The notes under the pieces were generated by a model. It was given only the letters and a program-made list of their open reading frames with translations. It did not search any database and was not told the origin of the DNA. From positions 1,260 through 65,259 of IMG/VR virus record IMGVR_UViG_3300021364_000018: DNA of 64,000 bases. One strand, 5' to 3'. This DNA comes from a virus (lineage: Duplodnaviria; Caudoviricetes). Positions within the stretch are counted from its first letter, which is position 1, and every line of letters starts with the position of its first letter. Positions 23,331 to 28,302 of this stretch are shown piece by piece. The translations under genes and the position numbers were made by a program.

Positions 23331-25157
23331 ATGGAAAACACCCTACCAGTTGCAAGTATCGGTTCAAACGAACCTTTAATGGTTGAAGTTATAAGTTCAT
23401 CATCAGATGACCCTATAGCAAAAAGATTAGACCAAGTTGTTGAAACATTAAAAATTGGTTTTAACGGACTCAATAAGTCTATTGGCGTATTAGCACAATC
23501 AATGCTAAAACAACCCAAAGTAGAACCTGCTGAGTTTGTTGGACCTCAACAACCTGATGAACCAACAGAAACAGGTGGGGGAGAAGTTAACACACCTCAA
23601 TTAAGTTTCTTTGCAAAATTTAGAGAACAGATTGCAGGTTTGGGTGAAACATTCTCTGCTGTTGGTCAATCAATTAAAGAAGCTGGTGGGGGTGATATTC
23701 AAGATGGTTTCAGTAAACTCGGTCAAGGTCTTGGAGTTCTAGGACCTATTGTATCTGTTGCAAAAGATATCTTCGAAAAAGTCACAGGTGTTTTTCAAAT
23801 TGTAAAAGGTTTCGGCAAACTAATATTCAATTCTGTTAAGGGTGTTGTTGGTGGTATCAAATCAGGTATCGGTTCAATCTTCGGTTCAAGTGAAGAACAA
23901 GAAGTCGATGATAGTAGAGAAGAGAATAAAGATGCTATTGATGAACATACTGAGGCAATGCAAGAGAATGTCGAAACAATGAGAGAAACGAGTAATCTTC
24001 TCGGTAAAGCAAGTGGTGACGAAGCAAACGAAAGAAAGAAAACGAGCAAGGTATTCAATAAGTTTAACATGGGTATTCTTCTTGTTATCGCCGCTATATT
24101 AGCAGTGATATTTGCATTTAAGAATAACATGTTTGCCGCTTTAGGTCAGATTGGTAAACAAGTTGCACTTAAAGTTGGTAGTATCGGTCAAGGTATCAAA
24201 ACAGGTATTGAAAAATCAGTCAAACAAATCAGTGATGGTGCAAAGGTTGTCAAAGATAAATTTGCTAAGACTGCCGATGATGTCGCTAAAGGTTTAAAAG
24301 CAAGATTCCCAAAAGCAACTGAAGCAGTAAAGAATGCCGCCACTAAAACCAAAGATGTAGTAAAAGGTGGTTTAGAAAAAGGTAAGAACTTCTTTCAGAA
24401 AGTAGGTTCAGGTATCAAAAATGCTGCTGGTGGTGCAATCGATAAAGTTAAATCAGGTGCAAAAGTTGTTGCTGAAAAAGCAGGTAAGGCAGGTTCAGTT
24501 GTCAAAGGTGCCGCTAAAACTTTAATAAAAAGATTACCAGTTATCGGTGCTGTTGTCGAAGGTGGTCTTGATGCAAAAGATAATGCTCAAAAATTTGGTG
24601 TAATCAAAGAGGCATACGAAAACGAAATACCAATCGTGCCTGTTGACCCAAACAATCCTGATGCAGGTAAAAGACCTCTAACAAAAGAAGAGTTCGAAGA
24701 ACAAGAACAAATCTATAAAGCATCTCTCGCCGGTTCTACAGGTAAGGCAGCCGGTGCTGGGGGTGGTGCCGCCGCTGGGGCAGCTGCAGGTGCAGCTATC
24801 GGTTCAGTTGTGCCAGTTGTTGGAACAATTGCAGGTGGTATAATCGGTGCAGTAATCGGAGGTTGGTTCGGTGGTAAAGCAGGTGATAAAGCAGCTACTG
24901 AAATTGCTGAAGCAGGTATGGGTGTTGATAATGTAAATGAACTAGATACAAGTCTAGTAGCAGCCGCTACTCAATACATGAATGCTGAGAAACTAGAATC
25001 TGCAAACAGTGAAATCGCTGATATGAAAACAGAAGGTTCAGGCACTAGTGTAAATGCACCAACTGTTGTAGACCAATCATCACAAACAATCAATGAGAGT
25101 TATTCTACAACGAATACAAATATGAACGACTCTCAATTAGGTTATTCAACAACCTAA
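23331..25157 (+). CDS. Tape-measure / gp29-like hub protein
   Basis: Ala/Gly/Lys-rich helical protein with a TM segment and glycine zipper, C-terminal NAPTVVDQS; follows gp26/gp51. Confidence 0.65.
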   Translation: MENTLPVASIGSNEPLMVEVISSSSDDPIAKRLDQVVETLKIGFNGLNKSIGVLAQSMLKQPKVEPAEFVGPQQPDEPTETGGGEVNTPQLSFFAKFREQIAGLGETFSAVGQSIKEAGGGDIQDGFSKLGQGLGVLGPIVSVAKDIFEKVTGVFQIVKGFGKLIFNSVKGVVGGIKSGIGSIFGSSEEQEVDDSREENKDAIDEHTEAMQENVETMRETSNLLGKASGDEANERKKTSKVFNKFNMGILLVIAAILAVIFAFKNNMFAALGQIGKQVALKVGSIGQGIKTGIEKSVKQISDGAKVVKDKFAKTADDVAKGLKARFPKATEAVKNAATKTKDVVKGGLEKGKNFFQKVGSGIKNAAGGAIDKVKSGAKVVAEKAGKAGSVVKGAAKTLIKRLPVIGAVVEGGLDAKDNAQKFGVIKEAYENEIPIVPVDPNNPDAGKRPLTKEEFEEQEQIYKASLAGSTGKAAGAGGGAAAGAAAGAAIGSVVPVVGTIAGGIIGAVIGGWFGGKAGDKAATEIAEAGMGVDNVNELDTSLVAAATQYMNAEKLESANSEIADMKTEGSGTSVNAPTVVDQSSQTINESYSTTNTNMNDSQLGYSTT

Positions 25158-25360
25158 TCTAACTTATCGTAATACTTCGCCTTTCTAGGGATTACTTTAG
25201 TCTTGTCTTTATGCACCTGAGTAGATGCATGGGAAGGTGATTCTTTACGAACCTTTATTTCAGGTTTCTTTTTACCAAAGATTTTTTCCCAATTGTCAGC
25301 ATATAACTGTTCATCTGAGTTTCGTCTTTTACTACCTTTGCCACCGTGCCAATTGCTCAT
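25154..25360 (-). CDS. Small basic hypothetical protein
   Basis: Probable start MSNWHGGKGSKRR, overlapping the upstream stop (ATGA). Confidence 0.65.
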   Translation of the reverse strand: MSNWHGGKGSKRRNSDEQLYADNWEKIFGKKKPEIKVRKESPSHASTQVHKDKTKVIPRKAKYYDKLD

Positions 25361-25509
25361 CTTGTATAATAGAATAATAAACCACAACCAATTAGAAGAA
25401 GCGCTCCTAAAAGAGCTGAGATGATTCTTTGTCGTCTTATTCTTTTCTCCCTATTAGTTAATTTTGGTGCTCTTCTTGGCGACCAATTTATACCGTGTTT
25501 ATTACCCAT
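25357..25509 (-). CDS. 50-aa membrane protein
   Basis: Manual translation MGNKHGINWSPRRAPKLTNREKRIRRQRIISALLGALLLIGCGLLFYYTR; coupled to rpsU by TAATG. Confidence 0.55.
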   Translation of the reverse strand: MGNKHGINWSPRRAPKLTNREKRIRRQRIISALLGALLLIGCGLLFYYTR

Positions 25510-25739
25510 TATCTACGATAACCTTTCATCATTGCTCGTTTAGCATTGAGTTTTTTCTGGCGTTTGATTTCTTGGTTTCTTTGATTACGAGTATCATTAG
25601 GTTTCTCAAAATACTGCCTGTCTCTACACTCTTTAACAATACCTTTTTTATCACACGCTTTCTTAAATCTTCTTAACATTCTATCGAATGGTTCGACATT
25701 TTTAGTTTTCGGATTTATTCTTGGTTTTACCTGAGTCAT
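25509..25739 (-). CDS. rpsU: Phage-encoded 30S ribosomal protein bS21
   Basis: EPFDRMLRRFKKAC.K.GIVKE.R.RQYFEKP...R matches the bS21 signature. Confidence 0.9.
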   Translation of the reverse strand: MTQVKPRINPKTKNVEPFDRMLRRFKKACDKKGIVKECRDRQYFEKPNDTRNQRNQEIKRQKKLNAKRAMMKGYRR

Positions 25740-25786
25740 GTTTATATTATATTAAAAAAGTGTTGTTATTGTATAGTGGTTTTTTA

Positions 25787-25950
25787 AAAAAAGATGTGTA
25801 GTCGCCCCAGCACTTTACAGCAACCCGCTCTACACCAATTGATTCCGCATCTATACTAATCAATTTTTCCCCTACTGAGTTCCCCCTATTCCACGGTCTC
25901 AGTTCTGTAGTCGCATTCACGGACACATGATTAATCACGACTACACCCAA
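25787..25950 (-). ncRNA. Candidate structured RNA (four hairpins plus U-tract) between gp32 and rpsU
   Basis: GC-rich intergenic segment with inverted repeats TGTAGTCG/CGACTACA, ACTGAG/CTCAGT, AATTGATT/AATCAATT and GTGTAG/CTACAC, followed by T6. Confidence 0.6.
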
Positions 25951-25958
25951 TATAGAAG

Positions 25959-26858
25959 TTAGTCGTTTGCTAACTTCTTAAAGTAATCCATCGCTTCGTC
26001 TTCACTTGAATCACCTACTGATGAAGATTCTGCTGATGCGATTACAGGTTCTTCTGCCACTGTTTCAGTGTTTACATTTGACCAAGGCACTTCTTCTAGG
26101 TCTTCTGCAACTGATTCAGCAGTAGAGTTTGATACACCTGTTGTCCCTAACACTCTATCGAGTTTCTCTTTCAGTTCGTCATAAGACTTGAACTGGTCTG
26201 GTGAGATGATAGAGGATAATGGACTCAGTGAAGTATATATATCATTTAACTGATTTTCATCAGTAAATAATGGTGCTGGTGAATCAAATTCTGATTTATC
26301 GTAGTTCCAGTAACCATCGACTTTTCTGATTTTGATTTTAAAGTTAGCACCTTCTTCTCTGAGGTCAAAAGGGTTGATAGCACTCTCATCTTCAAATGCT
26401 GGTGAGATTGCCTCTTTCAACATTTCAAAGATTTTCTTACCATAACGGTATTGAAATACTTTCCCTTCATTATCAGGATTTTTAGGGTCTGAAACAACAT
26501 AGATGTTAGACACATAATGAAGTCTACGCTTCTGCTTACGAGCCTGTTCTCTGTTTGCTTCGATATTAGTGTTCCACAACTGAGTGTTGTATTCACTAAC
26601 AGGGTCTTTTTTACCAATGGTAGTCAAAGACTTTTCGATATACCAACCACCTGGGCCTTGAAAGCCATGGTCGAAGTAAGATACCCATGGCATCTCTTCG
26701 TTCTCTGGTGTTGGGAGGAATCTGATAATTGCGTAACCGTTACCTGATTTATCAAGTTCTGGTTTCCAGAAATTATCATCTGAGTAGGATTTTTTTGCAC
26801 CTTGTTCAGGTGAAGCAGATTCCATAGCTGCTCTTAGTTTATCTAATGATGTCGACAT
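25959..26858 (-). CDS. gp32: Single-stranded DNA-binding protein gp32
   Basis: WKPELDKSGNGYAIIRFLP, HGFQGPGGWYIEKSLTT, YGKKIF, NYDKSEF, acidic tail DYFKKLA. Confidence 0.97.
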   Translation of the reverse strand: MSTSLDKLRAAMESASPEQGAKKSYSDDNFWKPELDKSGNGYAIIRFLPTPENEEMPWVSYFDHGFQGPGGWYIEKSLTTIGKKDPVSEYNTQLWNTNIEANREQARKQKRRLHYVSNIYVVSDPKNPDNEGKVFQYRYGKKIFEMLKEAISPAFEDESAINPFDLREEGANFKIKIRKVDGYWNYDKSEFDSPAPLFTDENQLNDIYTSLSPLSSIISPDQFKSYDELKEKLDRVLGTTGVSNSTAESVAEDLEEVPWSNVNTETVAEEPVIASAESSSVGDSSEDEAMDYFKKLAND

Positions 26859-26886
26859 TGTATTCTCCTATTGTATCGCATTGTAT
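26857..26886 (-). promoter_or_regulatory. Putative gp32 translational operator (3 x ATACAAT around the SD/AUG)
   Basis: AATACAAT-GCG-ATACAAT-AGGAG-AATACAATG. Confidence 0.5.
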
Positions 26887-26923
26887 TAGCATTTTATGTA
26901 AAGGTATTGGGATGGCGTCTACT

Positions 26924-27721
26924 TTAGATTTGACTCTGAAAGCAAGCTTCAATCAATACCCACTCGTCTTCGATATTAAGATTTTCAGTCTTGTATCTAT
27001 TGAGTATATCATTATACTCAATTTTATCGAATCCGTCTACCGAGTTTTTAAAATAAACATTGGCATTCGGATGATTCTCTTCTATCCATTGTAATAGAGA
27101 TAGAAACTGCAACTTTTGACGGTCGCCCACTTCGGAATCAGAAGTGTATTCGTCTTTATATGTATGACAAACAGTAGAGTCATAGATGTTATCTACAACA
27201 TCAAACTCTAATGTATCAAACCCTATAAGACAAATTTCTGTTTCTCCATGTTCTAAAGCATAACCTAATGCTTTTAGACCACAGAGTAAATTCTTAAACT
27301 CATCTTTTTTATATATAACTATGTTATCTTGATGAACAGAGCTATAAGCTGTAAAGTAATGAACCAGGTCATCTTTACCTTTGAAGTTTTCACTATTAAC
27401 TACAAACTTATCATCGCCAGGTTTTCTGACATCAAAGTAAGTAAATACCACATGTGGATTTGCAACTTTCATACCTTCGTGCAACATGTTCCATGATTCT
27501 TCGTCTTCATCTAAATCAATCGAATCAAAAGTCTCACCAACATACATTCTGATTTGTTTATAGACTTCTTCATCAATAGCATGTGACATAGTTGCAACAT
27601 CATTTACGAATAACATTTCTGGCATCGCATCTCTATAAACCATATTCATACCCCACCATCTTTCGAGAGTGGATAAATCGTAGTTATTTCTTGATGGTCC
27701 GTTTCCTACTATGTAGAGCAT
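26924..27721 (-). CDS. Rossmann-like GNGPS protein (DUF115/MptE- or glycosyltransferase-like)
   Basis: IVGNGPSR ... G.N..YRD ... EICLIGFD. Confidence 0.55.
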   Translation of the reverse strand: MLYIVGNGPSRNNYDLSTLERWWGMNMVYRDAMPEMLFVNDVATMSHAIDEEVYKQIRMYVGETFDSIDLDEDEESWNMLHEGMKVANPHVVFTYFDVRKPGDDKFVVNSENFKGKDDLVHYFTAYSSVHQDNIVIYKKDEFKNLLCGLKALGYALEHGETEICLIGFDTLEFDVVDNIYDSTVCHTYKDEYTSDSEVGDRQKLQFLSLLQWIEENHPNANVYFKNSVDGFDKIEYNDILNRYKTENLNIEDEWVLIEACFQSQI

Positions 27722-28302
27722 AATTGTATTAACTTCTTTTTAAACTTGTTATAGTCATAATTAATAAATGACTTATACTTATTTATCTTGTTTATAACCT
27801 CCGGATAAATTAAATTATCACTTATGAGATTATCCCATTTCTTTTGGCATTGTGTTATCTCACATAACATTACCATTGTTTCAATTGATATCTTCTTACC
27901 CATAAACTGTTTAAGAAGATAAGGGTGTTGTCCGTCTTTGACTGTTAACACCTCTTGTATCGATTTCTTCTTTAGAAGATTACTAACTTCATTCTCAAAT
28001 AGATAAGTTAGTTTTTGATTTCTTTTCTTCCAATCGATAAAAGTTTTCTTCGCCTCGTTTTCAATCATGTCACCAACCCACATATCTTTTGTGCATAGAT
28101 TAGCGACATAGAAATCTTTTAACTCTTCTTTATATAGTCGTGCCAATTTAGCGAAGTGAAATCTATCATTTCGTTTGAGAAAGGAAGATAGTTCTGCTTT
28201 GACTTTACCATTGTATTGATTAAAGTCATAGTCCCTAGAATGAAAATGTAATTTTATTCCAAGATACAGTTTATAACTATCAAATCCTTCTCTACTACTC
28301 AC
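27709..28302 (-). CDS. gp59: Helicase loader gp59
   Basis: Y..YL..K.HF...YDF..Y.GK, F.KR.D..F.KL, ISIET. Confidence 0.9.
   Translation of the reverse strand: MSSREGFDSYKLYLGIKLHFHSRDYDFNQYNGKVKAELSSFLKRNDRFHFAKLARLYKEELKDFYVANLCTKDMWVGDMIENEAKKTFIDWKKRNQKLTYLFENEVSNLLKKKSIQEVLTVKDGQHPYLLKQFMGKKISIETMVMLCEITQCQKKWDNLISDNLIYPEVINKINKYKSFINYDYNKFKKKLIQLCST

Follow-up and report, generated by a model that had tools for sequence, protein, structure and literature searches.

Bacterial small RNAs (sRNAs) that derive from 3' untranslated regions (3'-UTRs) are of two types, those processed from the parental message, exemplified by CpxQ, and those made from a promoter of their own, exemplified by DapZ. 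Sponge RNAs of the Csr/Rsm type, such as CsrB and RsmZ, sequester protein, and the gene 32 message of phage T4 carries a translational operator that consists of a 5' pseudoknot and an unstructured A/U-rich tract. Here we describe a structured RNA encoded directly 3' of gp32, the gene for the single-stranded DNA (ssDNA)-binding protein, and ahead of a gene for the ribosomal protein bS21, in an uncultured marine T4-like phage related to pelagimyophages. The DNA analysed, called the window throughout, is a 64,000-nt stretch (positions 1,260 to 65,259) of the IMG/VR virus record IMGVR_UViG_3300021364_000018, which spans 65 kb and is estimated to be ~35% complete. Phages of the pelagimyophage lineage are among the ocean's most abundant large phages; to our knowledge they are almost unstudied experimentally, and we know of no regulatory RNAs in them. 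The element stands for a new and well-supported family of structured RNAs, in general outline of a familiar kind. We slightly favor, at a probability of roughly 55%, the reading that it is a discrete, independently folding noncoding RNA (ncRNA) of ~160 nt, made in this phage as a 3' extension of the gp32 mRNA and acting through invariant G-rich loops.

What the element shares with 3'-UTR-derived sRNAs is its place at the 3' end of a message, a common terminator-like 3' end, and, to judge from the DNA, apparent read-through and processing in the window's own clade (clade 1) and a putative internal promoter past the stop codon in a sister clade (clade 2). It differs from them in being phage-encoded, in its size of ~160 nt with four to five helices, which makes it larger and more structured, and in its conserved unpaired parts, which are G-rich instead of C/U-rich seeds. 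Like the T4 gene 32 operator, it is a structured RNA physically tied to gene 32 in a T4-like phage, but it lies past the stop codon and is G-rich with four helices, whereas the T4 operator is a small pseudoknot before the start codon; moreover, the window's gp32 has a separate 5' UTR with AUACAAUGC-like units. As in CsrB and RsmZ, multiple hairpins expose GGA in unpaired segments (GUGGA and GGGAAAG are invariant, and the sister clade has AGGAUGG/AGGA), but clade 1 has only two invariant GGA, and the most conserved G-runs are not GGA.

Passages of a survey published in Comput Struct Biotechnol J in 2023 (PMC10690425) report 10,006 candidate structured RNAs from IMG/VR, 12 of them directly upstream of GP32, and mention the T4 gene 32 translational operator. 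As presented in those passages, the candidates share with the present element an intergenic IMG/VR source and covariation evidence; the gp32 motifs among them lie 5' of gp32, whereas the RNA described here lies 3' of it. Passages of a second paper (PMC7029224) place S21 among the proteins core to all pelagimyophages and state that late-promoter prediction failed in pelagimyophage genomes. A full-text literature search returned no description of an RNA downstream of gp32; the supplements of PMC10690425 and PMC7029224, which may list the motif unnamed, lay outside that search.

Read 5' to 3' along the minus strand, the element in the window is made up as follows.

25954-25978, minus strand: P0, the 9-bp stop-codon hairpin, from sequence and fold
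25949-25953, minus strand: the A/U-rich single-stranded linker AUAUU; in relatives, too, the linker here is A/U-rich
25792-25951, minus strand: the RNA body, P1-P4, matched by covariance model R1 at 147.8 bits, E ~1e-37
25946-25948, minus strand: the conserved GGG ahead of P1
25906-25945, minus strand: P1, the long hairpin UGUAGUCGU/GCGACUACA with an inner UCAUG/CGUGA stem, from sequence and fold
25874-25903, minus strand: P2, ACUGAGACC/GG(A)ACUCAGU, with conserved loop ends GUGGA...GGG
25866-25873, minus strand: the purine-rich junction J2/3, AGGGGAAA in the window and AAGGGAAAG in the family consensus, with invariant or near-invariant columns
25837-25865, minus strand: the P3 hairpin AAUUGAUU/AAUCAAUU, with GCGG at the 3' end of the loop, then GG(U)
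25796-25835, minus strand: P4, whose outer stem GUGUAG/CUACAC encloses a 2-bp GC helix and an apex in which a small GUAA-capped hairpin stands between GGG and GGGG
25786-25792, minus strand: a run of seven U, the terminator-like 3' end, from sequence

P0 pairs AGAAGUUAG (25978-25970) with CUAACUUCU (25962-25954) on the minus strand; its 5' arm codes for the gp32 C-terminal K-K-L-A, and its 3' arm holds the gp32 stop codon UAA (25961-25959) together with the first bases of the UTR. The RNA body begins ~10 nt past the stop codon, and in the window the 6-bp outer stem of P4 is followed by AUC and the seven U. The minimum free energy (MFE) fold of the window sequence gives all five hairpins, in agreement with the first-pass annotation of this DNA, a reading of the letters without database searches, which had placed four hairpins within 25787-25978 on the minus strand, a further 9-bp hairpin over the gp32 stop codon and, at the 3' end, a U-run that it counted as six and that is seven long. 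The four GGAA motifs to which it drew attention are there as well, although the second and fourth are peculiar to the window, the family consensus at these places being GGGGGUAC and GCGGG/GCGGA. Relative to shuffled sequences the fold energy in the window is modest (z = -1.99, with 6/200 shuffles folding equally well), and a single-sequence fold settles nothing; that the element goes beyond chance follows from its comparison with relatives.

A gp32 search of IMG/VR gave 80 loci. In all 42 with a gp32 at least 74% identical (L005-L046), 160-210 nt 3' of the gp32 stop codon are recognizably similar, and an exact-pattern scan with the most conserved 25 nt led to 71 viral contigs. When 39 distinct sequences were aligned blind to structure with MAFFT and folded by RNAalifold, P2, P3 and P4 were recovered, with 18/24 pairs compensated, that is, changed on both sides in at least one sequence. 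MAFFT misaligns P1 because its length varies; the long P1 hairpin folds alone (MFE) in 37/39 sequences, whose stem sequences are quite different. The covariance model R1, built on an 11-sequence seed that is in register for all helices, matches 57/57 distinct clade-1 loci at 83-168 bits, with one copy per locus, and finds a single site in the window and in the whole 65-kb record. Across the model-fitted alignment of these 57 sequences, standard pairs make up 98.2% of 1992 pair cells, against 73.3% with shuffled partners (0/500 shuffles reach the observed value), and pairing falls to 28-41% in a control in which the 3' partner columns are slid by 1-3. Double changes are present in 27/35 modelled pairs of the 57 sequences (by helix, P1 8/8, P2 6/9, P3 6/7 and P4 6/8 pairs), and the inner pair of P4 switches between G-C (42 sequences) and A-U (15 sequences); the stems thus carry the compensatory changes on which the first-pass annotation had made its proposal depend. 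P0, too, is kept in relatives, the stop codon being paired in 31/37 sequences at a mean z of -2.7 against shuffles, and synonymous changes of a Leu codon in its 5' arm are matched by changes in the 3' arm past the stop.

In a mutual-information scan, the top 18 column pairs are all modelled pairs. For pseudoknots and tertiary pairs the scan was convincing for none outside the modelled helices, one candidate pair excepted, in which the first base of J2/3 varies with a U of the P4a hairpin (columns 177/275 of alignment A5; window ~25873/~25819) as AU in 53 sequences, UA in three and CG in one. This covariation, with two or three independent events, could possibly reflect a tertiary contact or a base triple.

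The order of parts throughout the family is P0, a 4-8 nt A/U-rich linker, GGG(G), P1, P2, J2/3, P3, CGGU, P4, ACAC and a U-rich tail. P1 is long and variable in length, with AUUAUG...GUGAU near its top in many members; L011 has lost it, and L043 has a short form. P2 takes the form ACUNAGACC, GUGGA, a variable A-rich stretch or added hairpin, UGGG and GGU(A)CUNAGU, and its loop carries inserted sequence or a hairpin in L025, L033 and L045. The GCGG of the P3 loop is invariant in clade 1. P4, the most conserved part of the RNA, has an outer stem of 6 bp, a 1x2 internal loop and a G-C helix of 2 bp, with GGG, a GUAA-capped hairpin and GGGG at the apex. The words that make up P2 and P4 are alike (...AGACC/GUGG...UGGG/GGUACU and ...AGAGC/GGG...UGGG/GCGACU), and the two helices look like two copies of one module. 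About 30 columns are invariant, mostly unpaired G or A, which points to specific binding or a tertiary surface rather than to stability alone. Natural variants of the RNA number well over 100.

An open reading frame (ORF) of 67 aa (25747-25950, minus strand) overlaps the element; it has a TTG start and is uninterrupted in the window, and the first-pass annotation had pointed out that a protein conserved in this frame might explain the sequence. Comparison rejects such a gene. A stop-free frame, whichever it is, runs across the element in only 13/57 homologues, element lengths modulo 3 split 30/17/10 with indels that break the triplet register, Pfam has no match for the ORF, and substitutions across the element are pairwise-compensatory. 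We give a small protein gene next to no chance of accounting for the sequence, and regard the structured RNA as confirmed on this point.

The Rfam search that the first-pass annotation proposed gave no family: Rfam 15 has no match at gathering score in the whole window and none on the element in 10 related loci, and within 25400-26300 there are, at E 2-10, only chance-level matches to eukaryotic small nucleolar and long noncoding RNAs. ARAGORN finds no transfer RNA or transfer-messenger RNA (tmRNA) in the window, and blastn of the element and of its sister-clade counterpart against 50,697 GenBank phage records returned no match, so that neither a cultured phage nor, through one, a host could be linked to the RNA. 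A pattern scan of species-representative genomes gave 13 matches, about as many as expected by chance, of which only one (L155) is a true instance; six matches in Verrucomicrobiota were rejected since they lie inside a conserved coding gene, and no bacterial homologue was found in these genomes at the stringency of the scan. L155 (JAAXIF010000105.1, 121 kb) is binned in a 'Sphingobacteriales' metagenome-assembled genome; it has gp32, the RNA, a methylase gene and bS21 in phage order, and looks like a near-complete phage genome, not bacterial DNA.

Phages of the sister clade, whose gp32 is 55-62% identical (L047-L055, L058 and further contigs found by pattern), carry a divergent, colinear version of the RNA behind gp32. 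Its parts follow one another as GGG, P1 with the loop UCGUGUC, sometimes an added hairpin, P2 with a loop that contains GGGG or AGGAUGG, GAGGAAAG or GAGGUAAG as the counterpart of J2/3, P3 with a GCGGCAG loop, CGGU, and P4 of the form N-G-C/GGG...GGGG/C-N'. This RNA covaries independently (20/42 RNAalifold pairs). R1 matches the sister-clade locus L053 at E 0.002, and R2, modelled on the 3' half of this sister-clade version, matches clade-1 elements at full length in 11/22 loci, nine of them at E < 0.05, and gives two matches only, both near E 9, on 30 loci without the element. The two versions also agree in position and in the order of their motifs, which together with these cross-matches argues that they are homologous.

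Between the gp32 stop codon and the RNA, 38/38 sister-clade instances contain an exact TATAAATA, which we take to be the consensus octamer of T4 late promoters. In HTVC008M, Mosig and at least seven further contigs, the gene past gp32 has the same octamer 8-25 nt before its ATG, behind a terminator. The idea that the octamer serves as a late promoter across the genome was rejected, there being no enrichment in the loci examined, which are mostly replication-module DNA. In subtype 2a of the sister clade, a long convergent ORF ends 2-10 nt past the RNA in 6/11 loci with enough flank, and the other five have no co-directional ORF start within 200 nt, so that here the RNA appears to be all that the promoter-like element drives; subtype 2b has a small co-directional ORF past the RNA. 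Taken at the level of sequence, the sister clade argues for an RNA that may be made for its own sake.

The genes around the element in the window, and a promoter-like site between the RNA and bS21, are these.

27709-28302, minus strand: a gp59-like helicase loader
between the gp59-like loader and gp32, minus strand: a 265-aa gene without assigned product
25959-26858, minus strand: gp32, the ssDNA-binding protein, 299 aa (Pfam PF08804, E 4.8e-37), with the structured RNA directly 3' of it
25746-25775, minus strand: a sigma-70-like promoter for bS21, TATACA-18-TATAAT, with 10/12 consensus matches, between the U-run and the bS21 ATG
25509-25739, minus strand: phage ribosomal protein bS21, 76 aa (Pfam PF01165, E 8.2e-13), the downstream neighbor, outside the RNA

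The element keeps to gp32. Among the clade-1 viral pattern matches, gp32 ends ~150 nt upstream in 70/71, and it lies upstream in 37/38 sister-clade matches; the one remaining match of each set is at a contig end. The gene on the other side is exchangeable. In most clade-1 contigs bS21 follows directly, 25-60 nt past the RNA, but a 295-aa N6/N4 DNA methylase gene, with its ATG ~10-15 nt past P4, stands between the RNA and bS21 in L016-L019, L024, L026, L037, L044, L155 (5608-6495) and others, and across the family the downstream neighbor is bS21, the DNA methylase, a small basic protein or a convergent gene. With the 3' end of gp32 constant and the downstream gene interchangeable, a dedicated leader or attenuator of bS21 is excluded as the function of the family. 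What these comparisons establish is that the RNA has this fold, that the fold is conserved, that it is strictly linked to gp32 and that it does not depend on the gene downstream.

We posit that in clade 1 the RNA would be transcribed by read-through from gp32, with the U-run providing a leaky 3' end. TTTT occurs within 12 nt past P4 in only 39/57 clade-1 sequences, so P4 is at best a leaky terminator; a simple terminator scan is silent on P4 and the U-run because the P4 loop exceeds its rule. In 3/4 runs, assembled RNA-library contigs from three studies join the gp32 3' end to the element (X6 25735-26306, X9 25824-26413 and X10 25827-26980) and are consistent with co-transcription only, DNA carry-over being possible. 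Run X5 has no contig over 25699-25926, and two contigs from different studies end at 25824/25827, inside the P4 apex; neither observation was used as evidence. The RNA body would then be released, or would at least act, as an RNA product, and P0 would protect the new 3' end of the gp32 message after release. Judged by processed 3'-UTR sRNAs, P0 with an A/U-rich linker behind it is how a site of endonucleolytic release would be expected to look, and AUAUU is a candidate processing site. The working surface may comprise the 5' GGG, the GUGGA...GGG of the P2 loop, AAGGGAAAG, the GCGG of the P3 loop, CGGU and the GC-GGG...GGGG-C of the P4 apex, segments that would most likely bind a protein or C/U-rich RNA in trans; processing, action in trans and a partner are what we infer from this arrangement. 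A crude duplex search against gp32 5' UTRs, which ignored intramolecular structure, gave z values of about -1.5 to +1.5 in 23 loci. The part of the first-pass annotation that proposed a 3'-UTR-derived sRNA fits these features: the body lies behind P0 and a linker, ends in a stem and U-run, and in the sister clade follows the octamer, often with no co-directional gene behind it.

The other half of that proposal, an attenuator controlling read-through into bS21 by alternative pairing, fares differently. Here, pairing between the 5' strand of P1 and the 3' strand of P4 would decide, in the manner of a riboswitch, between termination at P4 and its U-run and read-through into bS21. As claimed, GGTGTAG and GCGACTACA each occur twice, and the 9-bp complementarity of GUGUAGUCG (25946-25938) and CGACUACAC (25804-25796) is exact in the window; P4 and the seven U are terminator-like, bS21 is within 50-60 nt in most clade-1 contigs, and the conserved loops could make a ligand pocket. 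Yet the longest Watson-Crick helix between the 5' GGG and P1 5' arm and the P4 3' arm reaches 9 bp only in the window and L005 (2/57), whose element is 98% identical to the window's, 7 bp in L009 and 6 bp in L006 and L007, and it is 3-5 bp in the other 52/57, close to the shuffled mean of ~3.8. The duplication of words in the window is therefore a lineage-specific coincidence, in which the stems of P1 and P4 happen to resemble each other, and not a conserved switch, and a false lead, however neat the pairing, is removed. In addition, the gene behind the RNA is not constant (bS21, methylase, small basic protein or a convergent gene), the window's bS21 has a promoter-like site of its own downstream of the U-run, there is no Rfam riboswitch match, and P4 does not overlap the downstream ribosome-binding site, all of which makes attenuation quite improbable. 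An autoregulatory leader, in which the RNA would mimic the site on 16S rRNA to which bS21 binds and bS21 would bind it and repress its own synthesis, draws on the RNA's place directly upstream of bS21 in most clade-1 contigs, on bS21 being a small RNA-binding protein (Pfam) and on some loop words that may loosely resemble the 16S 3' end. In the sister clade, however, bS21 is ~1.5 kb upstream of gp32 and the RNA is still behind gp32, the methylase gene parts the RNA from bS21 in several clade-1 contigs, the window's bS21 seemingly has its own promoter and almost no leader, and no small-subunit rRNA model matches, even at E 10; we hold such a leader to be highly improbable.

The main rival of the trans-acting ncRNA in clade 1 is a purely cis role in the gp32 mRNA, in which the fold, with P4 and the U-run, would form the 3' end and shield a very abundant message from 3'-to-5' exonucleases, with neither an RNA product apart from the message nor a target in trans. 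The element is always directly 3' of gp32, a stem and U-run end it in 39/57 sequences, RNA-library contigs continue from gp32 into it, and Melnitz-like phages have a different structured motif and a terminator at the same place, which suggests that the gp32 3' UTR is generally structured. But a stabilizer needs stable helices, not 30-odd invariant unpaired purines, the late-promoter octamer of the sister clade (38/38) would make the RNA without gp32, and the separate P0 hairpin already closes the gp32 reading frame; overall we consider the cis module unlikely, though a serious contender. Several points nevertheless weigh against the ncRNA that we favor. Ahead of the RNA, clade 1 shows no recognizable dedicated promoter, so that its members are accommodated just as well by a purely cis role, in keeping the gp32 mRNA stable or in forming its 3' end. 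The covariation counts rest on a model-fitted alignment, which favors structure, although alignment by MAFFT alone and the folds of single sequences point the same way. R2 does not match the window's own element within E 10. That TATAAATA acts as a promoter here we infer from how exactly it is conserved and from its role in T4, and it is neither enriched in clade-2 loci (66 found against ~54 expected from composition) nor frequent in the window (3 against 6.8 expected). A co-directional gene begins 9-40 nt past P4 in subtype 2b and in many clade-1 members, so that the RNA there is also a 5' leader. The assembled RNA-library contigs cannot show strand, transcript ends or transcription itself, and a search of the 65-kb record found no CsrA (PF02599) or Hfq gene, which at 35% completeness is uninformative on the whole phage or its host.

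The discrete ncRNA could, more speculatively, open a new functional class of phage RNA, one that accompanies gp32, either as a two-module G-rich late decoy that would capture a host or phage factor or with a G-quartet core or ligand pocket; we regard this as a tentative idea with rather low odds. A decoy might capture an RNA-binding protein or, in concert with phage bS21, free 30S subunits by the C/U-rich 3' end of their 16S rRNA; the junction words UAAGGG/GAGGA/GAGGU are Shine-Dalgarno-like. In the other variant, the P2 and P4 apices could bring their four conserved G-runs together within one molecule, as the quartet core or the pocket. Whichever of these applies, an RNA with a fixed place behind an essential ssDNA-binding gene in two clades whose gp32 identity is only ~58% is a well-defined, testable object, usable for structure probing, for partner pull-downs and for asking how bS21-carrying phages take over gene expression.

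The spacer between gp32 and bS21 measures 219 nt. The bS21 gene of the window has 160 homologues, and the 120 listed are all PF01165. Promoter-like sequences similar to the one ahead of it (TAGACA/TTGACA...TATAAT) are found in L009, L011, L023, L028 and L043, and in the window as in these five 6 nt separate the end of the -10 box from the ATG and a Shine-Dalgarno sequence is lacking; with the -10 box so near the ATG, the bS21 message is probably leaderless. Other clade members have AAGAGAA/AGGAGAA before the bS21 ATG. Past bS21, in minus-strand order, come two small ORFs and then a convergent 608-aa gene. A conserved small basic protein (MSNWHGGKGSKRR...) without a Pfam family is encoded at 25154-25387 on the minus strand, two genes past the RNA, and the same protein stands at most ~60 nt past the RNA end in subtype 2b of the sister clade (L211, L247).

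By gp32 DNA, the nearest named phages are two that infect Pelagibacter, HTVC008M and Mosig, and Melnitz, a phage of Methylophilales, and cyanophages follow at a short distance; at the protein level, gp32 identity to HTVC008M, Mosig and Melnitz is only ~52-53%. The gp32 5' UTR in the window (26859-26923, minus strand) contains three to four tandem AUACAAUGC-like units, followed by an AGGAGAA ribosome-binding site, and is similar in clade-1 loci; the tandem units may correspond to the translational operator that T4 has on its gene 32 message.

The Melnitz-like motif behind gp32 (L003 3324-3440, L059, L065, L070, L073, L084 and L056) is conserved among them and consists of a hairpin, AAGG...CCUU, with a loop that covaries with GACUnnn further downstream (AGUAG/CUACU, GUCAG/CUGAC), and a canonical terminator comes next. 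The covariation of the loop suggests a pseudoknot; RNAalifold, which is blind to pseudoknots, recovered no more than the 4-bp stem. Elsewhere in Methylophilales phage Melnitz-1 (L003 63-111), a glutamine riboswitch aptamer (RF01739, 52.8 bits) lies just past the annotated tmRNA.

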